A stretch of DNA of 64,000 bases from a virus. Taxonomy: Duplodnaviria > Caudoviricetes. The notes beneath the pieces are model-generated. The model saw only the letters and a list, made by a program, of their open reading frames with translations. It was not told the DNA's origin and did no database searches. Position 1 is the first letter of the stretch. Each line of letters starts with the position of its first letter. Both the position numbers and the translations under genes were made by a program. Location: IMG/VR virus record IMGVR_UViG_2885358051_000002, positions 26,284 to 90,283 of that record; one strand, written 5' to 3'. Shown here in pieces: positions 24,236 to 63,632 of the stretch.

Positions 24236-26770
24236 TTATACGGAAACTATATTTGTAATCTTCAAATCTCCATAGTTTACCGTAACGATGAAGTTAGCCA
24301 CCTTACCTGACGAACCCCAAGTAGGTGGGAGGTCAGCATTGGTAATGCGCAGGATTCGTGTGGGCACCGATGATGGCCAATGTGCCTTAACCCATCCGAG
24401 GTCAGACTGCTGTTCGGCCGGTGTACGAGAGTCCACCGCTTCCCCATAATTACCGATATATCGCTCCCAGGACCAATCTTTGTCTTTTAGAGAGTCCGTG
24501 ATGTCGTAGTTTCCGCAAAGAAGATGAGGATCGAGGTAGATATTCACATAACCCGGATATGCCGATGCAGAAGTGATACGCTGGCCCGATTCATTGTAAA
24601 AACGTATCTCAAGGTCTTGAAGACCATACACCATGTGCCATACGGAAGACAGCGGATGCGGTTCGTCGGCCACAGAAGATGGTGACACGAGATACCACTT
24701 GCAGCCCCCATAGGTAACGGTTGGATAAGTGCGAGAAGAGCGTTCATAATTCATTGCCGGGTCCCATTCACCCAAAAACACCTCCTGCGCATAGGCACGT
24801 GTCAGGACAAAAGAAGCGGAAGTGGTGTATGTCTCTGTTGAAGAATCCGTTTGCACGTCACGCGATGCCGCCACGATATAAAGCGCCCCATTCTCCGGAA
24901 TATCCGTGAAGAAAAACTCCAAAGCAGAAGGAATGCCATCGGGATATTTTGCGGCCATGACATCGTTCCACGCCTTATCAGCAACATCATCGCCAGACTG
25001 CCGTGTGATGGTAAGTTTATAGCCACCAGAAATGATGCTGCCCTCCACATCCTGCAAGACAAAATCCGCACGGAGATGTTCGTCTTCGGCTATGGTTCCA
25101 TCCGGCCGAGAAAGTCGGATGTCAATGCGGTCGGAGAAGCGAGTGAACTGGTCGAGAATACCATATATATGCGCATTTTTCGTGACGAACCCCTCTCCAT
25201 CAAATTCTTTGCGAGAGACAACCCCGTTGTCGTCGACCCGCAGCATGACAAATCCAGTAAGGTCGCCCCATCCTCCCATAAAAGTATGCTCCTCCCATTC
25301 CCAAGTATTGACCCCCTCGAAACGTGCTGTATAGGAAGTCGTATAGACAAAGAATTTCTGTCGTTCAGGATGGTCAGTTCCGAAGAATCCAGAAACGGAG
25401 AGTACCGCCCACTGCTGTGGAGAAGGCGAATAAGAACCATCGGAGAACTGTCGCGCCTGTACCGTTACCAAACCCGCAGTGAGGACTTTATCATCAGGAT
25501 GCGGGATGTAGTCCGCATCCTGCGCAATATAGGAAACCGTGTCATTCTCCGTGCGCTCCACCACATTGTCCACTGCAATGACCCGACAATAGATAGACTC
25601 GAACCCTGCGCGGGAGATATTACCCCGGCGGTCATCTGCATTAGCTGACGCATTTTTAGAGCCATCCATATTGTGCCAGAACCCACGAAGAATGTCGTGA
25701 ACCAGGAACTCACCCGGTTCCCCGTCATTCAAGTCAAGCACAAACTGGCAGGTGTGTGCCGAAGCATCTACGGCTATCACCTCCTTAACACGACCCTTAC
25801 CGGCCGAGTCCCAGCGTGTACCCGCCAACACTTCAATAGAGTTATATTTCAGCGTAGGAACGGATAGCGACTGCGAAAGTTCGAGGTTACGCGCGAAGAT
25901 AGTTCCATCCGGCAAAAAACGCATACCCTCGCGAGCACCGATCCCCACCTGGCCATCCTTCTCAAAATCGCCCACAGTAACCGTCTTCTTCAGTACCGTC
26001 TCTCCCTTAACCAAGATAGAGTTATTGAATGTGATTTTGCCGTTGGCCACATCATCGTGCGTCTTGGAGAGCCAATGATTCTCGGCATAGGCCGGCGTAA
26101 CGAGATGGTCGTCGGAGTCCTCTTTCGTACCATCCCCCGCCACCCCGTTGATGATATTACCATTAAGAACAAGCTGCTTTAAGGATGCCCATGTAACCGT
26201 CAGTTTCTCAAATGTCGCTTCCGCTATCGTCTTGATAAAGCGTACCATATCAGCAGAAGCCACATATTCCCACCATGTATCAGATCCACCTGCGGCGATG
26301 GACTCATCAGATGCCAGTTGTCCACTGTTGATGACCTGTTGCCAAGTGCGGTCCTGTACCACACCTCCCACTTCGGACGGAGAGATGATGCCCTGCGTAA
26401 AGATATAGTAATGCGTATTAGGCCCTACCTGCGTTCCGCTCTCATTGCATCCATAGATGTCAATCAGCTCAGAGGGAAACACCACCTGCGCATTAGCATC
26501 GGCATCCTCAGACTTCGGAATGGCAATGTACACATAACGGATAAGATTGTCGTGAAAAAACGTAGGCGATGCTACCAACGGCCATCTGCGGTAGTTGTGC
26601 GCATTGTCATATCCAAGTCCGGATATGCCACGCATATAGCACATGACCATGGAACCGGAAGAGCAGTTGGCATGGATGTAGTTGCGGTCTCCAGTAGCGT
26701 TAAGCTGTATGAAGATAGCATAATTGGAAAACCAATAGTCAGCAGGACGAGCGAGAGTCATATCAATCAA
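24236..26770 (-). CDS. Tail/baseplate structural protein (844 aa)
   Basis: Acidic, beta-rich, upstream of the tape measure; resembles Bacteroidales phage tail proteins. Confidence 0.7.
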   Translation of the reverse strand: MIDMTLARPADYWFSNYAIFIQLNATGDRNYIHANCSSGSMVMCYMRGISGLGYDNAHNYRRWPLVASPTFFHDNLIRYVYIAIPKSEDADANAQVVFPSELIDIYGCNESGTQVGPNTHYYIFTQGIISPSEVGGVVQDRTWQQVINSGQLASDESIAAGGSDTWWEYVASADMVRFIKTIAEATFEKLTVTWASLKQLVLNGNIINGVAGDGTKEDSDDHLVTPAYAENHWLSKTHDDVANGKITFNNSILVKGETVLKKTVTVGDFEKDGQVGIGAREGMRFLPDGTIFARNLELSQSLSVPTLKYNSIEVLAGTRWDSAGKGRVKEVIAVDASAHTCQFVLDLNDGEPGEFLVHDILRGFWHNMDGSKNASANADDRRGNISRAGFESIYCRVIAVDNVVERTENDTVSYIAQDADYIPHPDDKVLTAGLVTVQARQFSDGSYSPSPQQWAVLSVSGFFGTDHPERQKFFVYTTSYTARFEGVNTWEWEEHTFMGGWGDLTGFVMLRVDDNGVVSRKEFDGEGFVTKNAHIYGILDQFTRFSDRIDIRLSRPDGTIAEDEHLRADFVLQDVEGSIISGGYKLTITRQSGDDVADKAWNDVMAAKYPDGIPSALEFFFTDIPENGALYIVAASRDVQTDSSTETYTTSASFVLTRAYAQEVFLGEWDPAMNYERSSRTYPTVTYGGCKWYLVSPSSVADEPHPLSSVWHMVYGLQDLEIRFYNESGQRITSASAYPGYVNIYLDPHLLCGNYDITDSLKDKDWSWERYIGNYGEAVDSRTPAEQQSDLGWVKAHWPSSVPTRILRITNADLPPTWGSSGKVANFIVTVNYGDLKITNIVSV

Positions 26771-31298: not shown

Positions 31299-31471
31299 GT
31301 TCTATCAATATGTATGGTGTAGTATTATACATGTCCGTATTCTTGTCCTTGCATATACCCCCCCCCGGAGAATGAGGTAATGGTGTTGCATATATGTTTG
31401 AAGTGATAACGCAACACCGTCCCCCGTTTTTCTCCGGAGCGAGTCCACCCTATGAAATGACAGTCATTCAT
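31288..31471 (-). CDS. Mini-module M0; G9 tract (31358-31366) needs -1
   Basis: MNDCHFIGWTRSGEKRG...ICNTITSFSGG|GICKDKNTDMYNTTPYILIEHEL; 184 bp. Confidence 0.62.
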
Positions 31472-32603
31472 CAATGCGCATGGGCATTATCAATTCTATC
31501 AGTGAAGAATTGGTAGCATCCTCACGAACAGTCACTGCACGTTCAGGAGCAGACAATTCGAGACGAACATTATCCGTAGAGACGACAGAAAGAACCGTCA
31601 GGAAGTGACTCGAACGAAGACCAATAGCAAATCCGTCAGGAAGCGTACAATCATCAGAAGACAGGTCTTCGCGGGCCTTGCGTGAAAAGTCCACATCCTC
31701 GGCACAGAGAGAAACAGCACCATCCTGTTTGCGTATAGACACAATCTGTGTGGCAGAATTAGACATAAGGGACACGCGCTTGAGTGCATTTACAAGGTCA
31801 CGCACCGGCATGACAAGATGGTAAGGCGACTGTGCAGGAATGACCGAGTTGTAGTTCGGATATTTTCCCACTACATCCGTCACATAAAGTGTGGTGTCAT
31901 CAGCCGAAATGATCAGTTTCTTACCATCATGCCGCAAAGACACCATTTCCACATTTGCGAAGGCGGCATCAATCGCAGGAACAGCCTTTTTATATAATAG
32001 GATAAGACACGGTTTACCATTTGTAACAAACGGAATCCCATTCGTATAAACATACTTATAAAGCATGTGCCCGGATGTGGCAACAAAAGTAACCCCCTCG
32101 TTTGACACATCAAGCGCCACGGCACTCAGTTGTGGGCGCAAATCATCATCGGCTGTACAGGCAGATGCGGCCTTGACCGAAGGCAGAAAGACCGACAGAG
32201 GCAAAGAAAACTCAACCGTGGTGTTCTCCTGCTCAACTGGCAGAGGAAAGTCTGCACCATTAAAAGCCGGAACAGAGAAGTCACCACCCTTGTAACGAAA
32301 CGAAGCAAGAAAAGAGGTGTCATCTATTATCATTTCTACAGGCTGCTCCGGAAGCGTAGCCAAAATGGGTGAAACCATTGCCACTGGGAGGCAGAAAGGG
32401 CGAAAAACACCATTGTCCATGCGACGCAAGTCTATCGGCATTGTCAGTGTATTTTCGGATGACGAACCCGTAATGAAAAACTTATCATCCTTGAAAGACA
32501 CCAGCGCATTGTCAAGCAAAGGGAGCGTGTTTCGCTTGAGGATGACCTTAGAAACCGTGCTCAGCGCACGTAAAAGTTCTTTGGAAGAAACAGAAAATTT
32601 CAT
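31464..32603 (-). CDS. dnaN: DNA polymerase III beta sliding clamp homolog
   Basis: MKFSVSSKELL, DDDLRPQLSAV, VATSGHML, GKYPNYNSVIP, C-terminal LIMPM; 379 aa. Confidence 0.93.
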   Translation of the reverse strand: MKFSVSSKELLRALSTVSKVILKRNTLPLLDNALVSFKDDKFFITGSSSENTLTMPIDLRRMDNGVFRPFCLPVAMVSPILATLPEQPVEMIIDDTSFLASFRYKGGDFSVPAFNGADFPLPVEQENTTVEFSLPLSVFLPSVKAASACTADDDLRPQLSAVALDVSNEGVTFVATSGHMLYKYVYTNGIPFVTNGKPCLILLYKKAVPAIDAAFANVEMVSLRHDGKKLIISADDTTLYVTDVVGKYPNYNSVIPAQSPYHLVMPVRDLVNALKRVSLMSNSATQIVSIRKQDGAVSLCAEDVDFSRKAREDLSSDDCTLPDGFAIGLRSSHFLTVLSVVSTDNVRLELSAPERAVTVREDATNSSLIELIMPMRIDE

Positions 32604-48845: not shown

Positions 48846-49430
48846 TCATCTTTTATTGGCTTTCCTGATAAGCCTGACACCATATAAAATTCCAAACACA
48901 GAGAAGATAATACATATAAATGTAAAAACTTCACTCACCGTAGAAAAACAAGAAACATCCTTGTCCTTTGTAGCAGCAGAACTAATGGAGTCCGCATTCT
49001 GTGATTTTTCTCTCTCGTACAAAGCCTGAAACAAGGAATCGTAATGTTCCTGCATCGTAGTGTACTTATGCTGCAATAAAGTGAGTTGCTGCTGATAAAG
49101 TTGTTCCCTATTACGAGATTCCGAACGACTAATGGTACGCTGTTCATTACGTACTTCACGACCCAAAGAATCAATGTAAGAAGTGATAGTCTCCGATATG
49201 TGCTCAGAGGCAGAATCTTTACTTACCATTCTTTCCATAGAATACTGCAAGAATAAAGACAAAATGCTGTCAATACTTGTATATGATTGCCACGCACCAC
49301 TCCGGATTTCATAATGAGTAGAGTCGGAAAAAGAAGTGCTTTTCTCATTAAAATGCTCTGTTCGATGAGTGGTGGCACAGGCAGAGAACAAAACAAAGAA
49401 GACCAACACATAAAAAATGATTTTTGCCAT
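48846..49430 (-). CDS. Lipoprotein with C-terminal TM helix; spanin-like lysis protein candidate
   Basis: Signal peptide with lipobox LFSAC, central coiled coil, C-terminal hydrophobic helix plus basic tail; under a late-type promoter. Confidence 0.68.
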   Translation of the reverse strand: MAKIIFYVLVFFVLFSACATTHRTEHFNEKSTSFSDSTHYEIRSGAWQSYTSIDSILSLFLQYSMERMVSKDSASEHISETITSYIDSLGREVRNEQRTISRSESRNREQLYQQQLTLLQHKYTTMQEHYDSLFQALYEREKSQNADSISSAATKDKDVSCFSTVSEVFTFICIIFSVFGILYGVRLIRKANKR

Positions 49431-49534: not shown

Positions 49535-51043
49535 TTAATGTTCTACACCGCGTTTGAGCACCCGACCTGCAGAACCAAGTACATCCGTCATTATCACATG
49601 AAGTTTCTTTTCCTCCTTTGGATTTTCAGTCTCCAACTTATTGTACTCATCGCACATTTCTTTTGTTGGGAACAAAATCAAAATGAAACCAAGAGAAGTA
49701 CCGAAATGACGAGCTTTGAGCAGAAACGGTTTAAGGATGCCATCATAGCGTTCCAAAATCTGTTTCCATTCTTCCGCATATTGTCCAGGTATATCCTTGG
49801 GTTCTTCCTTTTCCGGCTCAAGAATGACAGGAGAATAGTCGAACAAGGTAGGCTGCGGAACATGGATATTTTCTCTTTTCCATTTTCGCAGAATACCCAT
49901 GACATAAGAAGCCACATCATCCGGCTGCTTTCGTTCAACAATACGCCGCACATCAGTAAGCGCGAAATATATAAAATCCTGCAATTTTTCTTCCGGAATA
50001 GACTCAATTATATCACGAAGTGAATGAATAGACAAGTCCGGACACCATGATACATACGTATCAATAAAATTGTATATGCTATTGGAACGACGATCCTCTT
50101 CCGCTTTCATGTTGCCCATATCGGAGTTCTTCATTGTAAACAAAACCTCCAATGGAATGCCACGCGACTTCCCAGGTGGGAAAATAGGTTCATAATCAAA
50201 ACTGAAATTTATTTCCCCACTACGGGCCAAATCATCCATTTCCTGTTTTACAGGTTCAAGCACCAGTTTCTTGACTTTGGACCAAGAAGTATAAGGATTT
50301 TTACCATCGTTAGTCTCATAATAATACTCGTCCGTAAGACCAAGAAATTCCACGAGGTCAGTATATGGAACCTTTTTATGACCCACATCCTTAAAACGCG
50401 AGAGATAAATGTATAAGCGAGGTGTCCGCTTTTTTAGAGCAACACGCGCAATATGAGACACATGCTTCACAAATCCATGCTGCATGGTAAATATATCACG
50501 GATATTTTCAGTCAGCATTACCACACGCAGGACACCAGTACGACGCAACTCACTTTCCGTCATAGCTATTTCGATGCGCGGGAACAGCGCAGCAGCTACA
50601 TGCCGTGTTACCTTGCCTTTTGTATCAAATTTAGGATATTTCATTGTAATACGACTCAATGCAAGTGCAGCCTGCTCCAATTGTTCATAATGAGCAGGGA
50701 TAACCCCCAAATCTGCCGCAGAGAGATTAAGGTCGATGGTTTCCCGCTTCATCAATTCCGAATCGTCAAATATAGCAGGAAAAGATTTCTGTTTATGCTG
50801 TGAATCAACAGAATCAATAATACGATGCTGTAACTTCTCGATGATGCCCAAGAGAATGCGCTGCTGCATGAGTGTGAAGTCACCGGAAATTTGGGAATAC
50901 ACCACAGGATTGTAGAGCCATCGCATGTCCCTGAGTTCCGAATACATGGAGTTGGAAGACACCATCAACTTATCCTGTTTAGATGACTGTTTACCCTGTT
51001 TTTCCTTTTTACCCTTCATAGGTTTATCCTTATTTTCATTCAT
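49535..51043 (-). CDS. Plasmid-type replication initiator (Rep_3/RepB family)
   Basis: FTLMQQRILLGII, KRTPRLYIYLSRFKD, LVEFLG, KKLVLEPVKQEM winged-helix pattern; iterons upstream. Confidence 0.8.
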   Translation of the reverse strand: MNENKDKPMKGKKEKQGKQSSKQDKLMVSSNSMYSELRDMRWLYNPVVYSQISGDFTLMQQRILLGIIEKLQHRIIDSVDSQHKQKSFPAIFDDSELMKRETIDLNLSAADLGVIPAHYEQLEQAALALSRITMKYPKFDTKGKVTRHVAAALFPRIEIAMTESELRRTGVLRVVMLTENIRDIFTMQHGFVKHVSHIARVALKKRTPRLYIYLSRFKDVGHKKVPYTDLVEFLGLTDEYYYETNDGKNPYTSWSKVKKLVLEPVKQEMDDLARSGEINFSFDYEPIFPPGKSRGIPLEVLFTMKNSDMGNMKAEEDRRSNSIYNFIDTYVSWCPDLSIHSLRDIIESIPEEKLQDFIYFALTDVRRIVERKQPDDVASYVMGILRKWKRENIHVPQPTLFDYSPVILEPEKEEPKDIPGQYAEEWKQILERYDGILKPFLLKARHFGTSLGFILILFPTKEMCDEYNKLETENPKEEKKLHVIMTDVLGSAGRVLKRGVEH

Positions 51044-51063: not shown

Positions 51064-51449
51064 GTTACCAAAATTAGCCGAAACAGTTACCACGTTTTAC
51101 CAAAACAGTTACCAAGATTTTCCTTCCATAAATGATAAAACCCATAAATACAGGGGGATTGAATACATAAATACACCCTATATAAATAATATATCATAAT
51201 AAAATGAAGTACTACCATTGATTATGTTGAATAAATAAGAATAACCATATATATGCTCACTTTTGGTAAAACGTGGTAACTATATTGGCAAAAAGTAGAA
51301 ATAAGAATGGAAAAGAAAGAAATGTTTTGGTAAAACATGGTAACTATCTATTATCCGCTCTCAATTCCTATATTCACCGCACATACAAGCCTACAACACC
51401 TCAGATAGCATAATTGGGTGTATTTAGTTTTGGTAAAACGTGGTAACTA
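51064..51449. repeat. Iteron-like repeats TTTTGGTAAAAC(G/A)TGGTAACTA (putative plasmid origin)
   Basis: Direct copies at 51261-51282, 51325-51346 and 51428-51449; inverted copy at 51085-51105; half sites at 51064 and 51107; AT-rich spacer. Confidence 0.85.
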
Positions 51450-51782
51450 TTGTACAGGATGACGCTCAACAAACTCTGTGATGGCACGAGAAAGAATATC
51501 GCCAATAGAAGTACGCTGCCCGGCAAAGTACTTCATACGATTCAATTTCTCATAGACAGAAAGCGGAATACGTGTCTGCACATTTTTCATCGGCTCCGCG
51601 TTCATCTGCTGTGAAAATACACCCACATATTGCTGTGTGGATGAAACCATGGGATTTTCTGGTGCAGAAGTTTCAGTCTCTGTAACAACAGATCCCACCG
51701 CATTTACCTGTACCATCATCTCTTCGTGTTCCTTAGCAGCCGGAGAACCAGCAACTATACTTTTCTTCTTGTAAGATTTCAT
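51447..51782 (-). CDS. Ribbon-helix-helix ParB/ParG-like partner of ParA
   Basis: Disordered N-terminus, then KNVQTRIPLSVYEKLNRM...SIGDILSRAITEFV. Confidence 0.68.
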   Translation of the reverse strand: MKSYKKKSIVAGSPAAKEHEEMMVQVNAVGSVVTETETSAPENPMVSSTQQYVGVFSQQMNAEPMKNVQTRIPLSVYEKLNRMKYFAGQRTSIGDILSRAITEFVERHPVQ

Positions 51783-51817: not shown

Positions 51818-52672
51818 TCAATCGGATGGAGAAGTCGTTTCAAGCAATTCCGTAATAAAGTCGTCATAGTCGTGTGCAGCGGTACAATCCGGGGCATAAG
51901 AGAAAATGTCCTGATGCTGGAATTGGCTCTCCCCTACCTTTACGCACTGGCGTATGCGCGTGTGGAACATTTCTGCCTCATAATTATATCGCAGGAACTC
52001 TGTAGTCTCTCGTGTAAGGTTGGTACGCTCATCAGCCATGACGATGAGCAAGCCCCGCATTACCAAATCAGAGTTGAGTTTACGCTGCACATTACGATAA
52101 GCCTCTATCATACGACCGATACCATCCACAGAAAGAGAACCAAGCTGCACAGGAATGATAACACCAGATGCTGCACCAAGCGCATTGTATGTAAGTTCGG
52201 AAAGTGCCGGAGCACAGTCAATAAGTACATAATCAAAACACTCCTCTATAAGAGAACCGCCCAGGTTTTCCGCTCCGAGATACAACGCATCCATATATGA
52301 GATGTCGTTGCCAAAGAGCGAAGCCAGAACAAGTTTAGATTGCATTTGGCGATGTAAATCTGGATCGATGTCCGCAAGAGAAGTAGATGCAGGACTATAG
52401 AAAAGTCCATTGTCGCTCTTATATACTGGAAGATGATTTTTATCACCATCTCTAAGTGCGTCAGCTACAGTGGAGATGATAGACATCTGTTTTATTTTTT
52501 CCCTCCATCCGAGCAGAGATGAAAGATTGCCCTGTGGATCGAGGTCGATGCACAGAATACGAAGAGACGGGTCACGACGAAGCAGGCCGGCCGCTACGTT
52601 CTGCACAGTAGTGGTCTTTGCTACCCCACCCTTATTATTGGCAAAAGCCAAAACTTCTTTGAGTCTATTCAT
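51818..52672 (-). CDS. parA: ParA/Soj partition ATPase
   Basis: NNKGGVAKTTT, IDLDPQGNL, YVLIDCAP, VIIPV. Confidence 0.95.
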   Translation of the reverse strand: MNRLKEVLAFANNKGGVAKTTTVQNVAAGLLRRDPSLRILCIDLDPQGNLSSLLGWREKIKQMSIISTVADALRDGDKNHLPVYKSDNGLFYSPASTSLADIDPDLHRQMQSKLVLASLFGNDISYMDALYLGAENLGGSLIEECFDYVLIDCAPALSELTYNALGAASGVIIPVQLGSLSVDGIGRMIEAYRNVQRKLNSDLVMRGLLIVMADERTNLTRETTEFLRYNYEAEMFHTRIRQCVKVGESQFQHQDIFSYAPDCTAAHDYDDFITELLETTSPSD

Positions 52673-53281: not shown

Positions 53282-54106
53282 TTATTTACCATAGTTTTCC
53301 GGCGCTATGCCATCGGAAGCCAGGGATGCCGTAGTATGCTTGATGAGTTTGACAATCTCATGGTTGTTTTTGTCGAACACCGGGGCCTTAGAGTACAGCA
53401 GATCAGGCCGGCGGGACGGGTCGATGAAGGTGTGTCCAAGGCCCTGCTTTCGTGTCATCATTGGACGAATTTCCGGATCGTAGTCTTCCTTCCATTCCTG
53501 CAATGGCTGCTCATCGGATGAACGAGAGCCGCGCGGCCGGCGGTCGTGCCTGTCCCATACGTTCTGCGCCCAGAGAGCCATGTAATTGAGCGTCCCGAAG
53601 ATTCCCTTATCACCTTCCCATGCAATGTCGGACTCGTCGATGCTGTCCAGACATCCAATCAGTTCAAGGTAGGCATTCATGCCAGGTACCTTCACAACCA
53701 GACGCGGTTCATCAAATTCCTCGTCATATACCCTACCCTGCTGCTCGATATACTCGCGCACGGATGTGCCCAGGCGGTACGCCTCTTTGATGTTGTCAAA
53801 CGCCTGCGCACGCTGCGCAAGGTATGCCATACGGTTCTCGTTCTCACGATCCGTAATCTCGCGAAACTTCATATTATAACCATCCTTGCCGGGTTTCGGC
53901 TCGAAATTGGTCTTAAACGCATGGATTTTGCAGACGATGTGCGGGGCGAAAGTACTGATGATACATTGCCCCAGATCATTGCGGGCCTGGACGGTAGTTG
54001 CGATGAACGGTCCATGAAACTGCATACCCGTGTTGAAAGCCAAACTGCGGGGAGAAAGTTCCCCATCCCAGAAAGGGAGAGCTTGAAGTTTTTTTTCTGT
54101 ACTCAT
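53282..54106 (-). CDS. Hypothetical phage protein (274 aa)
   Basis: Long ORF. Confidence 0.75.
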   Translation of the reverse strand: MSTEKKLQALPFWDGELSPRSLAFNTGMQFHGPFIATTVQARNDLGQCIISTFAPHIVCKIHAFKTNFEPKPGKDGYNMKFREITDRENENRMAYLAQRAQAFDNIKEAYRLGTSVREYIEQQGRVYDEEFDEPRLVVKVPGMNAYLELIGCLDSIDESDIAWEGDKGIFGTLNYMALWAQNVWDRHDRRPRGSRSSDEQPLQEWKEDYDPEIRPMMTRKQGLGHTFIDPSRRPDLLYSKAPVFDKNNHEIVKLIKHTTASLASDGIAPENYGK

Positions 54107-54125: not shown

Positions 54126-55640
54126 TTAATGAATTGATGAATTTATGAAAGAATTGTTGAAAACAGGAATGCCAAAAGCCGCAAGAGCCAGTGAAATGGG
54201 GAGCAAGAAAAAGATTAAAACGACGGAAAAGAATAGTGTAGCCAATTTTGCAACCATTCCTGTCTGTTCAGGTTCTTCTTCATCATCTTCTTCTGTTGGA
54301 ACAGTGGTAGATGTTGCAGGAGACATATTTTCTTCCACTGCCGGTTTCAATTGAGCAGATTCTGATGGAACCATATTGGGGATGATATGCAAGGTTACTT
54401 CCTCCTCAAATTCATCTGTAGTCTCCGACTCAGGATCAGGAATAAGTGCAACACAAGGATTGTTTTGGTGATTTTCTGCATTATCTATAACGCGGAACAC
54501 TTTTGGTGTAATATCATTAGAAAGTCCCACTTCAATGATGGAGCCCTCTTCGATGCCAAGTTTTTCGGCCGTGGCTTCAGAATAAAGTGAAGCGCGGGAA
54601 ACTTCACGTCCCATGATGGTGACGGAGTTGAAATATGCCACAGGTGTACGACGGCCTGTCTTTCCCACTGTAATTTCGATACGTGTGCAGGTAGTGATAA
54701 CCGTCTCCGGAGAAAACTTATAAGCGATGTTGCCATGCGGATGATGAGCGGTTGAACCGAGAGAGTCAGCAAGGTTTTTATCATCCACTTTGATAACAAG
54801 TCCATCAATAGGATAGGGCAGAGAGTTCCTGTTTTCCCGATCATCAAATAGCGAAATATACTCGATAATTCCATCAATATATGAAGCATCAAAGCAAGAG
54901 GGGCACTCAACATTGAAGCCAAGGGAATGTACTGCAAACATCATCGACTCGAAGTGCGATCCGTTGGCAGAGAAGCAAGGAGCGTTCACTTTCCATGGAA
55001 CGAAAGCGAGCAGAGCACAGTCAGGAGTCGCTACTTCCATATTGCACAATGAACTTGCAGCTGTACGACAATCGGTATAAAGACGGCTTATTTTATTGAG
55101 ATTGGCTTTTGGGCAAACAATTTCCCCATATATTTCTATTCTACCCAGCTTCAATCCTATCAGGGCAGGAAGCTGCTGAGGGATTCCGGAGATAAGGCCG
55201 GCATGGGCTGTGATGTCCTGACCCTGCAAACCATTGCCACGAGTAGAAGCACTGATGAGTTGTCCATCCTGATATACCAAAGAGCAACTTATGCCATCAT
55301 ATTTGTATTCGATGGAAACTTGAAAATTGTCATGTCCTATCTTACTGATTGTATTATTCAGCCAAGTAAGAACAGCATCACGTGTTTTTGCCTTTTGGCA
55401 AGAACGCATGGGGGTGCGGTGTGCAATAGTGCGTCGGCCGTTGTCGGAGAGGTCAGAGCCTACTTTCTGAGTAGGAGAATCCGGCAATGTCCATTCCGGG
55501 TGCTGTTGCTCACATTGCTCTATCTGAGAAATGAAAACATCAAAAGCTGCGTCCGTAATGGAAGGGTTCGATAGAACGTAATAATCGTAAGAGGCTTTGT
55601 TCGCCTGATTGACTAAGGAAATATATTCTTGCTGTGTCAT
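54126..55640 (-). CDS. ligA: NAD+-dependent DNA ligase-like protein (Ia, adenylation and OB domains) with an acidic linker and C-terminal TM helix
   Basis: YYVLSNPSITDAAFD, EYKYDGIS, GEI, IDGLVIK, IAYKF, OB VGKTGRRTPVA; no Zn finger, HhH or BRCT. Confidence 0.85.
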   Translation of the reverse strand: MTQQEYISLVNQANKASYDYYVLSNPSITDAAFDVFISQIEQCEQQHPEWTLPDSPTQKVGSDLSDNGRRTIAHRTPMRSCQKAKTRDAVLTWLNNTISKIGHDNFQVSIEYKYDGISCSLVYQDGQLISASTRGNGLQGQDITAHAGLISGIPQQLPALIGLKLGRIEIYGEIVCPKANLNKISRLYTDCRTAASSLCNMEVATPDCALLAFVPWKVNAPCFSANGSHFESMMFAVHSLGFNVECPSCFDASYIDGIIEYISLFDDRENRNSLPYPIDGLVIKVDDKNLADSLGSTAHHPHGNIAYKFSPETVITTCTRIEITVGKTGRRTPVAYFNSVTIMGREVSRASLYSEATAEKLGIEEGSIIEVGLSNDITPKVFRVIDNAENHQNNPCVALIPDPESETTDEFEEEVTLHIIPNMVPSESAQLKPAVEENMSPATSTTVPTEEDDEEEPEQTGMVAKLATLFFSVVLIFFLLPISLALAAFGIPVFNNSFINSSIH

Positions 55641-59594: not shown

Positions 59595-61880
59595 TTAATC
59601 AGTGATTTCGCCCCCCCCATATAACGTGGGGGATTCTGGCTTATCTTCTTTGATAACTACCTCATGCCCGGCATCCTCAAGGCATCGGACATAGTGCCCT
59701 ATCTGGTCGGCCGCCAGAGGCAGGAGAACAAAAAGATAAGGATAGTCTTCTGCATCCTCTGTAAACACACGCGGAGCGATAGCCGGGAAATGATTAAGCA
59801 CTACTGAAGCTATTTGGGCATCCCGTCCGTAAAGTTCGTAATACTCGCCCATTAGGAAAAAAAATATGGTGGAATGATTCGCCTTTTTCAGTTCGTGGAA
59901 TCGCTTGTAATTTCGGCCGTAATGCTCGCGTGCCATATCCAGCGTGTAGCCATACTTGGCAGCGATGGCAGCGTCTTCCTCGGTGATTTTCTGTGATTTC
60001 GCAGACACGCTATAACGGGGTGCATCCTGTACTGTTTCCGTTGCTTCCGACACCTCGGCCGGGGTTGGAGAGGGTGCAACCTCTCCCGTGTCCGTGTCTG
60101 CCTCCTGCTGCTCACCCTGACCAAACCATGCACGCACGGTGGCGATGGCGTAAGGCTCCGTAGCCTGCCACTGCTTCGCCTCCTTGTTCCAGATGCAGCC
60201 ATGCGCCTTGATCTCGCGCTTATGGAAATACGTATCTTTCCAATCGGCACCCACTACGGCCACACCGCCTTCCGGTAGTTCTACCAGTGACAAACCGGGC
60301 GCGGGGGCTGCGTTGCTCTCTGTTGCCTCGTTTTCTTTGCTCTGGCGGCTTTTCTTGCCGCGTGTGGTGGTCGGGTTGGGCGTGGGTGCTTCGGGCTTCT
60401 TATAGTAACTTGTATGAACAAAAACACGGTGTGCAATCTCACCCGTATATACACGGCTGTAGTCTCCGTGGGGAAATACCGTACACACGGAAAGTCCAAA
60501 GGCCTCAGACACGGCGCGTACTTCCGCATCCGTATAGTCGTGCGGCTTCTCATAGTTGCCGTCCTTGCCTTCGTCGGCGGCGGGTGCTGCTGCGTAAATG
60601 GTAGCAATGAGTTCGGCGCGTTTCTCGTCGCTCATCGTGCGGTTAGTCTCGATGGAGTTTGAAGTACCAATAAACTTGTCGGCAAAGTCCGTGTGCTCTT
60701 CCCTGACGGTATATGCCATGTCCTGCATACCGTCGAAGGAGTCGTGGAATGTTACAAACAGGTTCAAATCGGTGGCGGCGTCAAATTCTTCTTTGGTCGG
60801 TCCATCCTGCCAGCTTACCACATAGTCTTTACCCCATCCGTCGTACTTCTTTACTGAGAATTTAACACCGGGGAAGGCCGCCTGAGCCATCGCCAATATA
60901 TTGCGTTTGCGGGCGTTGTTGCGCTTCGTCTCGGCACTCCTGAGTGCTTTTGCTTCGCGAGAGTTCCGGCGGTGGCGATAGTCTAATTTTTCGTAGGATC
61001 TATAACAAGAGGCCACGGCGTCATCGTAGGGCTTAATCGGATCCATGATGCCCTCCCATTTCTGGCAGCGTGCGCGGTAGTCTGCCAGACGGTCGGCGGC
61101 TTCCTGTTCCTTCTGGCGCTCCTCCTCGGCCTTCTGTTCAGCAAACAGGCGGCGGAACTCTGCAACCTCGGAGGCCATAACCTCCTCCCATGTCAGGGGA
61201 CTATAATAGTAGCGCACATAGTCGTAACCCTCAGCGTCTGCCAGATACCAGCGGCCGGACTTATCCACGACGGCGGCGGCGATGGTATAAAATGTGGATA
61301 ACTCCTCCTTTGTCGGGTTGAACTCGCAGAAGTCGTCACCGACATCCTCGGAACGGCATCCGCCATGCAGCGCGTAGTCAGCAACCAGGCGGTCGCAGTC
61401 CTCGGGAGATGTGGGCAGCTCATCAACGCGGATCACCTTCTCAATACAGCACAGGCGGGGGAGGTCTTCGCGTTCCTCGTCCTTGAACTTAACAAGGTAC
61501 TTTAATTCATCCCTGTAGCCTCCGTCACCCTTAAAATAGGTGGACACAGCCCACACGAATTGTCCTTCACGTATAGGGGCGGGGCAGCCGGCGCCCTTGT
61601 GCTCGTCGGCTTCCAGTTCGTGCGCATGGAACTGGCTACGCTCGTATGCTTCGGCCTTTTCATGGATAGCCTTGCGGGCCTCACTTTCGGCGGCAAGTAC
61701 AGTTTTTTCACCAAAGGTTTTAAGGAATGCCGGACGGCTCAGTGGAGCCATGACGCCGGCCCATCCACATATACCTTCATATTGTTCGTTTTCCGTGTGA
61801 TATGCAGCGGAAAGTATAGGATTAGACAATACTTCGGCCAAACGGGCCACTATCTGCTCAAATGATACTGAATTTTTCAT
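59595..61880 (-). CDS. Polyvalent-type early protein with LPD29-like and C-terminal MutS-I-like domains (start at MKNS)
   Basis: AAFPGVKFSVKK...VSWQDGPT (LPD29-like); YKRFHELKK...IFFFLMGEYYELYGRDA (MutS domain I-like). Confidence 0.72.
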   Translation of the reverse strand: MKNSVSFEQIVARLAEVLSNPILSAAYHTENEQYEGICGWAGVMAPLSRPAFLKTFGEKTVLAAESEARKAIHEKAEAYERSQFHAHELEADEHKGAGCPAPIREGQFVWAVSTYFKGDGGYRDELKYLVKFKDEEREDLPRLCCIEKVIRVDELPTSPEDCDRLVADYALHGGCRSEDVGDDFCEFNPTKEELSTFYTIAAAVVDKSGRWYLADAEGYDYVRYYYSPLTWEEVMASEVAEFRRLFAEQKAEEERQKEQEAADRLADYRARCQKWEGIMDPIKPYDDAVASCYRSYEKLDYRHRRNSREAKALRSAETKRNNARKRNILAMAQAAFPGVKFSVKKYDGWGKDYVVSWQDGPTKEEFDAATDLNLFVTFHDSFDGMQDMAYTVREEHTDFADKFIGTSNSIETNRTMSDEKRAELIATIYAAAPAADEGKDGNYEKPHDYTDAEVRAVSEAFGLSVCTVFPHGDYSRVYTGEIAHRVFVHTSYYKKPEAPTPNPTTTRGKKSRQSKENEATESNAAPAPGLSLVELPEGGVAVVGADWKDTYFHKREIKAHGCIWNKEAKQWQATEPYAIATVRAWFGQGEQQEADTDTGEVAPSPTPAEVSEATETVQDAPRYSVSAKSQKITEEDAAIAAKYGYTLDMAREHYGRNYKRFHELKKANHSTIFFFLMGEYYELYGRDAQIASVVLNHFPAIAPRVFTEDAEDYPYLFVLLPLAADQIGHYVRCLEDAGHEVVIKEDKPESPTLYGGGEITD

Positions 61881-61942
61881 AACTCGATATTGTTTTATGA
61901 TTTTTGAAAATCGGTGAATTTTTGGATATGCTATAAAAGGGA

Positions 61943-62263
61943 TTATTTTACGTTTTGACGACGAACAGACGGGAAGTCGCAACTGGAGAAAGATGCGGGT
62001 AGGGCGTATGTGTCGTATAAGTCACAACCATGCACAAAATGAAAGCAATCATCATGCCGTAACTCATACACGGCGATACCTGCAGAACGTCGGAATATCT
62101 TTACCGTGGCAGACATGCTATAGGCGTTAGAAATCATTTTATTAGAGGTTCCCCACCATTCTTTAGCAATTAAGCTCCATAGGTGGCCAGAAATGGCGAT
62201 AAAGTAGGCATAACATCGGCGACCGCCTTTTTCCTCAATAGCAACATACTTTTTTTCTTCCAT
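61943..62263 (-). CDS. Hypothetical protein (uncertain)
   Basis: ORF fills the operon gap. Confidence 0.4.
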   Translation of the reverse strand: MEEKKYVAIEEKGGRRCYAYFIAISGHLWSLIAKEWWGTSNKMISNAYSMSATVKIFRRSAGIAVYELRHDDCFHFVHGCDLYDTYALPASFSSCDFPSVRRQNVK

Positions 62264-62571: not shown

Positions 62572-62901
62572 TCAGTCAATAGGGGCGAAAAAGAAAATTT
62601 CCAGGATAAAAACCACACCCATGAAGACAAGGGCTAAATTAGTGGCCTTCTCGTGCCGTTCCATCCATTCGGCGGCAGCATAGGAAACGCGGAGCTGCAG
62701 GCGGTAGATACGCGGAAGCGTGGTGAAGTGGTAACGGCACCAGCGTGCAGCGTTACGACAAGACTGGATAAAACGGGCCAGAAGTACAACGACAACAGCA
62801 GTAAAGGACATAAGGGTCTTTTTTGTGAGGGCTGCAAGGTTTACATCGGCAACCGAGTCTATAAATGACAAGGAAGAACTTTGATTTACTTTTGCTTTCA
62901 T
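62572..62901 (-). CDS. Small membrane-associated hypothetical protein (start at MKAK)
   Basis: Two hydrophobic segments. Confidence 0.55.
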   Translation of the reverse strand: MKAKVNQSSSLSFIDSVADVNLAALTKKTLMSFTAVVVVLLARFIQSCRNAARWCRYHFTTLPRIYRLQLRVSYAAAEWMERHEKATNLALVFMGVVFILEIFFFAPID

Positions 62902-62978
62902 TGTTTTATGATTTTTGAAAATCGGTGAATAATTAGAGGAAATATAACGGGGATAGCCGGAACCATCCCCGGTCAGTA

Positions 62979-63632
62979 TTAGCAACATGCGGCCTTTAGG
63001 CATCCGCGTTCGGTGTCCAAATTCTCGTAAATGGCTTCGCCGTTGCTAAATGTGCCAATACACGCCAAGAGGTTTTCGCTGCATTGCTCGAAAACGTCTT
63101 CACACTCTTCCACGAGGTTGCGGAATGTTTCATAAATTCGTTTGATGATGTTTTTTGCCTGTATCTTACACATGCCCCGATTCTCCAGCCACTCATCCTT
63201 TATAACGTCCTCAGCAGTCAAAGCATAACGGCCTGTGAGTTCGTACTCATCATAGATAGAGTCAAGTTCCACAGAGGCGGACCAATCAAAATTAGCACCG
63301 GAATAATAACCGGATGTTGCACCCGCTTGCACCTTCACGTATGCAGTTATACCGGCTATTTCCACGGCCTTCACACGTTCGGCAAAATAATGGGTGTTAT
63401 AGGAGCGGTCCCCATCGTTTTCGTCTATCTCGCCCCATCCCAGGCGCAGCAAAGCGGCTTTGCAAGACTCGATGGAAAAATCAAAATCATCTTGTGTGCG
63501 GCACTCATCATATTCACCCAACCATTCTTGGGGGTAGTTGTTGGCGTCTATAGTCTCCTGATCGTAATACTTGTTAAACCCAAAAGCAAAAATCTTGCTT
63601 GCGTTTGCGGTTGCAAAATTCGGTGTACTCAT
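62979..63632 (-). CDS. Acidic hypothetical protein, first gene of the early operon
   Basis: 217 aa ORF after TTTG-20-TACCTTTG at about 63683-63714. Confidence 0.75.
   Translation of the reverse strand: MSTPNFATANASKIFAFGFNKYYDQETIDANNYPQEWLGEYDECRTQDDFDFSIESCKAALLRLGWGEIDENDGDRSYNTHYFAERVKAVEIAGITAYVKVQAGATSGYYSGANFDWSASVELDSIYDEYELTGRYALTAEDVIKDEWLENRGMCKIQAKNIIKRIYETFRNLVEECEDVFEQCSENLLACIGTFSNGEAIYENLDTERGCLKAACC

Follow-up and report, generated by a model that had tools for sequence, protein, structure and literature searches.

A minimal NAD+-type ligase with a predicted membrane tail, linked to a ParA-Rep cassette in gut phage-plasmids

We have analysed a stretch of 64,000 nucleotides (the window in what follows) from the IMG/VR virus record IMGVR_UViG_2885358051_000002 (Duplodnaviria; Caudoviricetes), corresponding to positions 26,284 to 90,283 of that record; it reaches to the end of a contig of 90,283 bp. 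A gene on the minus strand of this window (54126-55640) codes for a 504-residue nicotinamide adenine dinucleotide (NAD+)-type ligase, P0001, in which only domain Ia, the adenylation domain and the OB fold of bacterial LigA are left, followed by an acidic linker and a C-terminal hydrophobic helix. This architecture is conserved in a single large clade of phage ligases, in which the residues of the adenylation chemistry are intact and the ligase gene nearly always lies a short way upstream of the gene for the partition ATPase ParA. We lean, if not by much, towards the view that the protein is a nick-sealing NAD+ ligase tethered to the inner membrane, and that it belongs to a module for the maintenance and replication of an episome.

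Architecture of the enzyme

The gene is a single open frame of 504 codons with no break, and its product has Pfam, NCBIfam and PHROG matches, the PHROG assignment being NAD-dependent DNA ligase. Domain Ia, the module that binds nicotinamide mononucleotide (NMN) and NAD+, covers residues ~1-65 (55446-55640, minus strand like all parts of the gene). Pfam detects it weakly (Nlig-Ia, residues 14-50); it carries the invariant residues Y20, D30 and D34, and AlphaFold2 models its helices (3-21 and 30-46) with a predicted local distance difference test score (pLDDT) >90. The nucleotidyltransferase (adenylation) domain follows at residues 70-312 (54705-55433; DNA_ligase_aden, PF01653, E 5.9e-41), with motif I (KxDG) in the form EYKYDG at 55293-55310 and its lysine, K113, at 55302-55304. 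The OB fold occupies residues 316-391 (54468-54695; DNA_ligase_OB, PF03120, E 4.2e-16). These are the three domains that an earlier note on this DNA, made from the letters alone, had claimed to be present. Neither Zn finger, HhH nor BRCT gave a Pfam match in the 504 residues, and the NCBIfam LigA models align only via the first ~390 of their 652-664 positions, which leaves the protein below their cut-offs (280 vs 444 bits for TIGR00575 and 275 vs 369 bits for NF005932).

What follows the OB fold is a linker (residues ~392-461, 54258-54467) that is disordered (pLDDT <50 over 390-460) and strongly acidic, with a net charge of -18 over the 84 post-OB residues; nothing notable in the way of repeats or hairpins was seen in the DNA that codes for it. 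Then comes the C-terminal helix, residues 462-494 (MVAKLATLFFSVVLIFFLLPISLALAAFGIPVF, 54159-54257), which we predict to be a membrane anchor from its hydropathy, its AlphaFold2 model (pLDDT 81-93 over 463-494) and the conservation of the tail. Its stretch L466-F494 consists of 29 uncharged residues, the best 19-residue Kyte-Doolittle mean is 2.73, K or R residues lie at both flanks, and residues 460-494 form the sole strongly hydrophobic window of the protein. The last ten residues, NNSFINSSIH, and the stop codon (54126-54158) represent a degenerate version of a terminal motif of the family, x-G-x-[FL]-K. The AlphaFold2 model, built from 100 family sequences, has a mean pLDDT of 85, and of more than 90 in the core. 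The linker of about 80 residues and the helix of about 28 that the earlier note had described were thus right within a few residues. The layout is that of a tail-anchored protein, with one hydrophobic segment at the C-terminus and, at the N-terminus, a polar helix of domain Ia and no signal sequence. The ligase is predicted to insert into the membrane by its tail and to keep its core in the cytoplasm.

A family of tailed ligases

A word-indexed search retrieved 908 relatives, of which the best 120 all have domain Ia, the adenylation domain and the OB fold only. In an exhaustive HMMER search, about 35-45 clusters at 50% identity score above ~205 bits, with canonical LigA starting lower. In a survey sample of 146 members, the linker and the hydrophobic C-terminal tail were found in 119, another 25 end right after the OB fold, and the remaining two end in BRCT. 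A copy of the ligase with 97% identity is present on three other contigs. A scan of IMG/VR added 52 further tailed genes, among them those of a distant tailed clade with a core only ~31% identical that still ends in ...AAVFFLPLLGGAFK. The earlier note had set the retention of the tail in homologs as a check, and the homologs do keep it, rather than continuing into HhH or BRCT domains.

The unusual architecture could by itself raise the suspicion that a LigA gene had suffered a frameshift, had become fused to a membrane gene downstream or was decaying into a pseudogene. Such an artefact is ruled out by the intact reading frame and by the tail kept in 119 of the 146 relatives and in the 31% clade; together with the 97% copies on three contigs and the lack of coding potential for a Zn or HhH domain anywhere on the contig, we regard its chances as negligible. 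The assembly (2.95 Mb, 92% complete) also contains the normal LigA of the host, of 691 residues, on a separate contig (C221). In a six-frame Pfam search of the whole genome, the ligase Zn-binding domain (PF03119) and HhH_2 (PF12826) were detected in this host LigA only and nowhere on the phage contig, so that the phage enzyme is an extra ligase and has no missing half elsewhere on the phage. A split ligase with a hidden HhH/Zn subunit was looked for in the same search and none appeared. The loss of the Zn finger, HhH and BRCT modules, as claimed in the earlier note, is therefore real for the protein, and for the Zn and HhH domains also for the contig.

Linkers in the family range from 29 to 210 residues (median 107) and are mostly acidic, hypervariable in length as well as in sequence. 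The tails come in two styles, TM1, to which P0001 belongs, ending in ...AAFGIPxLNGSFK, and TM2, ending in ...W[QE]TGLLIPLGLIGLATSGLLK. The tails usually carry the terminal motif F-x-x-P-h-h-x-G-x-[FL]-K. In TM1, anchored on the proline (45/45), it has F at -3 in 44 of 45 sequences, G at +4 in 43, K or R at +7 in 35, and F or L at +6, and the proteins end 1-3 residues past the K/R position. In P0001 the motif is slightly degenerate, the G being replaced by N and the K by I, and the protein runs on for five more residues. No other protein of the window has this terminal motif or C-terminal tail, although the products of two genes, at 48846-49430 and 62572-63003 (both minus strand), do have a hydrophobic C-terminal segment, the first also an N-terminal one. 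TM2 tails have a polar break, W-[QEHK]-T-G, in the middle of the helix.

That the helix is an element for oligomerisation or for binding a partner, for example buried in a phage protein complex, and not an anchor, seems to us very improbable. In its favour, the terminal motif is more conserved than a plain anchor would need, there are K/R residues at both helix ends, and the polar break of the TM2 tails would fit a hairpin or an interface. However, a run of 29 uncharged hydrophobic residues at the very C-terminus, behind a disordered tether, is the classic layout of a tail anchor, and among relatives the sequence of the helix varies freely with its hydrophobicity retained.

In FastTree phylogenies the short family lies apart from cellular LigA (support 99), and all tailed rows fall in one clade (support 100) that contains neither full-length LigA nor the T5 subunit; these supports are local values and long branches are present. 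Tail-less members are scattered inside the tailed clade, which would imply several losses of the tail, and judging from the tree a single origin of the tail is likely. There are also sister ligases in which BRCT is the C-terminal module (P0041 and P0049, from L008 and L023), and one, P0126 (L012), in which a BRCT domain is followed by linker and hydrophobic tail. It is possible that these three are intermediates between LigA and the tail-anchored form.

Conservation of the catalytic core

We aligned the family with E. coli LigA (MG1655), 40 cellular LigA and the catalytic subunit of phage T5. In domain Ia, Y20, D30 and D34 (E. coli Y22, D32 and D36) are invariant in 100 of 100 family rows, and the position of the NMN-binding Y35 of E. 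coli is F33 in this protein. The adenylation domain conserves K113, D115, G116, R134, E173, R192, R271, D279, K284 and K308, the counterparts of E. coli K115, D117, G118, R136, E173, R200, R277, D285, K290 and K314; the KxDG motif and motifs III, IV and V are thus all present. No member of the family has lost a catalytic residue, and from the alignment the enzyme looks able to carry out the first step of the reaction, its self-adenylylation from NAD+. Strong conservation across the family is also seen for the OB fold, including G329, T332 and P333. Its loop reads LSNDVTP (LSNDITP here), a form specific to the family, vs the canonical (K/R)AGDVIP. An OB fold kept under selection argues for a nucleic-acid substrate, as it would not be needed for the hydrolysis of NAD+ alone.

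Linkage to ParA and a putative initiator

Downstream of the ligase, all on the minus strand, come a conserved gene for a 274-residue protein (53282-54106, starting 19 nt after the ligase stop), ParA (51818-52672; Pfam AAA_31/CbiA, PHROG 164), a small protein (51447-51782) and a 502-residue putative replication initiator, Rep (49535-51043), at the end of the module. The small protein has no family match; it is 41-60% identical among loci and conserved in position, and from this position we presume it to be a ParB/RHH-type partner of ParA. The putative initiator, likewise named from its position, has no Pfam or PHROG match and is found downstream of ParA in most loci with 22-75% identity.

The linkage to ParA was surveyed in 80 IMG/VR loci, 52 with tailed and 28 with untailed ligases. 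ParA was found 0.04-2.4 kb downstream on the same strand in 49 of the 52 tailed loci, usually with Rep next, and in two of the other three the locus runs off the contig. Within 6 kb of the untailed ligases (18 full-length LigA, 7 short and 3 other) it was not found once. The 52 tailed loci are related and hence do not count as 52 independent events. Still, the linkage spans three deep groups, namely TM1 with the 274-residue gene, TM2 without it, and the distant clade. In all of the longer tailed loci fetched (L003, L004, L007 and L009) the ligase is followed by ParA, the small protein and a putative initiator of ~370-500 residues on one strand, with the 274-residue gene between ligase and ParA in the TM1 loci; none of the tail-less and BRCT-ending loci fetched has the ParA-initiator arrangement. 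At one tail-less locus (L010:5517-5960, plus strand) a gene for a pyrimidine-dimer glycosylase of the T4 endonuclease V type (Pyr_excise) lies directly upstream of the ligase, and the two are a two-gene excision-repair pair.

The 274-residue protein is a possible partner of the ligase by virtue of its conserved position and sequence. Copies with 44-65% identity occupy the same place in L003, L004, L009 and about 20 IMG/VR loci. The family (46 clusters, 44-78% identity) is more conserved than the ligase and was found only in these phages. The protein gave a good AlphaFold2 model (pLDDT 89.7); it had no Pfam, PHROG or PADLOC match and no sequence match in the PDB even at E 10. The model had no Foldseek match and no resemblance to a solved DNA-binding fold or ligase subunit, and the ESM Atlas was uninformative. 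Its best fold matches were to the anti-CRISPR AcrIIC2 (Z 5.4/5.2, the next being 3.6, over 90-97 residues), which is weak and below the reliable range of the tool.

Motifs in the linker

Within the hypervariable linkers, an island of the type EE-W-L-A-P-S-L-F-[DE] recurs in many TM1 members. Among TM2 members, several show QLSLF, QLDLF or QLELF, a clear QLxLF being seen only in a few of them. Overall, the tripeptide [SLYD]LF occurs in 22 of 71 linkers vs 1.4 expected from shuffles. The motif by which bacterial proteins bind the beta clamp is QL[SD]LF, and the contig of P0001, like four of five related phage records, encodes a clamp (DnaN) of its own. The likeness, together with the phage-encoded DnaN, suggests that the linker may recruit the clamp. 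As a general feature of the family a clamp-binding motif was discarded, since a motif of the S-L-F type is found in only about a third of the linkers. In the distant clade the S-L-F island is replaced by a basic one, KPKRKRNYPQVGEPTLRE. We also observed that linkers of this clade (L050-L089) are made up of a variable number of acidic EEP(L/I)(V/I)I(D/E) repeats, and that the membrane helix is immediately preceded by an island of conserved basic sequence, PKPKRKRNYPQVGEPTLRE.

The phage-plasmid and the surroundings of the ligase

The contig represents a tailed phage that also carries genes of a plasmid, in short a gut phage-plasmid. Its phage genes include those for a 1927-residue tape-measure protein, an S49-type protease, ThyX and a C5 methyltransferase, and its replication genes those for the DnaN beta clamp (31464-32603), a DUF5906 primase-helicase, a PriCT primase and an exonuclease; ParA, the small protein after it and the 502-residue putative initiator make up the plasmid genes. 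The end of the contig (63865-64000) is an array of 31-bp tandem repeats, with a unit of about CCGGACATGCAGCACCACGGCGGGCACACCCTG, which continues at the start of the contig (L182:1-60). The genome is therefore probably closed, with the assembly broken inside the array. In 29 of 42 related IMG/VR contigs of at least 40 kb there is also a break 2-13 kb upstream of the ligase, so the array, or a terminus, would be a conserved landmark. The co-directional block that contains the ligase is headed by a gene for a 795-residue protein (59595-61982, minus strand) with the polyvalent-protein domain LPD29 (366-450) and a fragment of MutS domain I (693-731); related phages have LPD1, LPD5 or LPD11 proteins at the position of this gene.

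These surroundings also fit a different scenario, one in which the ligase is made from the block of the genome expressed first and acts early, as a protective or anti-defence enzyme at the membrane site of DNA entry, where it would reseal nicks or ends left by host nucleases, or perhaps present in the virion DNA, before they become double-strand breaks. We consider this rather unlikely. The gene does belong to a long series of small unknown genes, all in one direction, that is read inward from a contig end 8.4 kb away, the block starts with the LPD29 and MutS_I polyvalent gene (and LPD1, LPD5 or LPD11 stand upstream in related loci), the adjacent 274-residue protein has AcrIIC2 as its best fold match, and T5-like phages, which have nicked genomes, also carry an NAD+ ligase of their own. 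On the other hand, the constant neighbour of the ligase is ParA-Rep and no known anti-defence gene, PADLOC found no defence system in its neighbourhood, the AcrIIC2 match is too weak to be relied upon, and the contig end is a tandem-repeat array rather than a proven physical terminus.

Does the enzyme seal nicks?

The conserved OB fold, the BRCT domains of sister ligases, the glycosylase neighbour, the linkage to ParA-Rep and the beta clamps of the phages themselves all point to DNA as the substrate. The earlier note had proposed a membrane-tethered nucleotidyltransferase rather than a standard ligase. Its minimal core, linker and helix stand, but these features speak for DNA, and the second half of the proposal does not find support in the form given. 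Doubt about standard ligation is nevertheless kept alive by changes that run through the whole family.

Several observations weigh against the reading that we favour. At several positions where 85-100% of cellular LigA have a basic residue, the alignment shows another one throughout the family. In E. coli numbering, R379 has given way to L in 96% of the family and without exception in the distant clade, and R208 to N family-wide; A, S or E stands for R218, with K in the distant clade, and K, A or E for R333. In addition, I384 is mostly T. Work of the Shuman laboratory reportedly found R208, R333, T334, R379, V383 and I384 of E. coli LigA to be essential, and the loop is said to adjoin the nick. 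The change of R208 to N, for one, is tolerated, since the T5 catalytic subunit has it too. P0001 and its 97% twin, alone among the 146 members, also have Y for the conserved R before the G-E of motif III. The core is hardly more basic than usual (median isoelectric point 6.2 in the family vs 5.7 for LigA cores, and 5.4 here), and neither a compensating basic surface nor a notable insertion was seen in it. As to the possible helpers, a comparison of the family of the 274-residue protein with T5 LigB gave an hhalign probability of 0.2%, so that no T5 LigB-like subunit is recognised in it. Its gene is absent from the TM2 and distant clades, for which reason it cannot be a universal subunit, and the linker island is missing in many relatives and degenerate in P0001 (LHIIPNMVPSE). 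Finally, a membrane location would itself call for an explanation in a ligase; co-location with DNA entry or with membrane-proximal replication of the episome, a restricted reach or a tethering role are the options. DNA must be held in another way than by LigA, and sealing is not assured.

If sealing failed, the enzyme would be an NAD+-dependent adenylyltransferase halting after step 1 or 2, with the capping of 5'-phosphate DNA ends by adenosine monophosphate (AMP) at the membrane as a form of superinfection exclusion in lysogens, AMPylation of another substrate, or the sensing or consumption of NAD+ as possible outcomes. The loss of every DNA-clamping module without a more basic core, the family-wide replacement of residues that are basic in LigA (above all R379 to L in the nick-adjoining loop), the presence of a full LigA in the host, and the place of the gene in a cassette expected to be expressed in the plasmid state would all agree with this. 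Yet the OB fold and its loop, though altered, are strongly conserved. Sisters have a ligase-type BRCT, and one tail-less sister has a glycosylase gene beside it. Moreover, the T5 subunit shares the changes R208 to N and R333 to A, and the structure of the related PR1 ligase has been solved on nicked DNA. A pure sensor might also be expected to lose catalytic residues in some members, and none has done so. On balance we find an enzyme of this kind unlikely.

Returning to the nick-sealing ligase, we picture it as an NAD+-dependent polynucleotide ligase that descends from LigA and retains no more than domain Ia, adenylation domain and OB fold, and whose core would be held on the cytoplasmic face of the inner membrane by a disordered acidic tether of 70 residues and a single helix. 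K113 would be charged with AMP from NAD+, and the enzyme would then most likely seal nicks in the DNA of the phage-plasmid itself, namely lagging-strand nicks, those left in the closure of the incoming genome, or both. Without DNA-encircling modules, and with a core no more basic than usual, the capture of the substrate would probably depend on a partner, for which the phage beta clamp (through the linker motif) and the 274-residue protein are candidates. The ligase would in this way be a fixed component of the cassette that maintains the episome. A more speculative extension, to which we give a minor chance, is that tailed ligases are the obligatory third element of the cassette, along with ParA and Rep, and couple the nicked or clamp-loaded DNA of the episome to the inner membrane, as sealing enzyme and as attachment point for replication, establishment or partition; or else that in lysogens they work as abortive ligases that AMP-cap the DNA ends of incoming rivals.

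Comparison with known ligases

Close relatives of P0001 were absent from the isolate phages of INPHARED, the plasmids of PLSDB, 185,579 species-representative genomes and 200 genomes of the host family, in which only canonical LigA at <=35% identity was found, and the literature that we searched contained no description of a membrane-anchored NAD+ ligase. What we have here is a large and deep phage clade, with dozens of clusters at 50% identity, in which the DNA-clamping modules have been swapped for a tether and a predicted membrane anchor and the gene has stayed firmly linked to ParA and Rep. An enzyme of this kind that seals DNA would be a new minimal scaffold for an NAD+ ligase and, to our knowledge, the first DNA ligase anchored in a membrane, and it could help to locate the replication of gut phage-plasmids. 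Should it fail to seal, it would represent a new use of the ligase fold.

A review of ligase architectures from 2020 presents NAD+ ligases as a uniform group to which few viral enzymes belong. The known shortened forms are the split ligase of the T5 type and a fragment of high-light Prochlorococcus, and neither has a tail. The Prochlorococcus ND-ligase is a truncated protein of <260 residues with domain Ia and the adenylation domain only, without OB fold, and was judged probably inactive by its authors (bioRxiv 10.1101/2020.05.11.089284). Like the phage enzyme it is derived from LigA, horizontally mobile, shortened and coexisting with other ligases, but it has no linker or tail.

The Chlorella virus ligase and Lig E are likewise minimal, with nucleotidyltransferase and OB domains only, but they are ATP-dependent, lack domain Ia and have another type of OB fold. 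A compensating latch or basic surface was not seen in the phage enzyme. Lig E is also targeted to a non-cytoplasmic or envelope location (PMC6144786, PMC7470946). It is exported by means of an N-terminal signal peptide, which the phage enzyme does not have, this one being predicted to stay cytoplasmic on a C-terminal anchor.

Domain Ia, adenylation domain and OB fold of the phage enzyme are homologous to those of bacterial LigA (E. coli, PDB 2owo and 5tt5), with an identity of 31-35% and Foldseek E values from 1e-32 to 1e-37, and every residue that serves the adenylation chemistry or NMN binding has been retained. LigA has in addition a Cys4 Zn finger, four HhH motifs and BRCT, in place of which the phage enzyme has the acidic linker and hydrophobic helix, and R208, R218, R333, R379 and I384 are changed in the latter.

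Among phages, a close parallel is the heterodimeric type. The catalytic polypeptide of T5, ligA (323 residues), ends after the OB fold, just as the core of the phage enzyme does at ~391, and shares the changes R208 to N and R333 to A, although it keeps R218, R379 and I384, has no linker or hydrophobic tail and falls outside the tailed clade in the tree. Its helper, ligB (259 residues), is encoded directly after the catalytic gene and is similar in size to the 274-residue neighbour found here; ligB has an annotated BRCT match (InterPro IPR001357), and the neighbour shows no similarity to ligB. The heterodimeric ligase of phage PR1 (PDB 9hu3/9i5i), a close relative of that of T5, matches our model with a Foldseek E of ~1e-23 (9hu3_E, 1.8e-23, TM(target) 0.69), and its structure, solved on nicked DNA, provides, like the ligA/ligB pair of T5, a precedent for a minimal core that works with a helper subunit.

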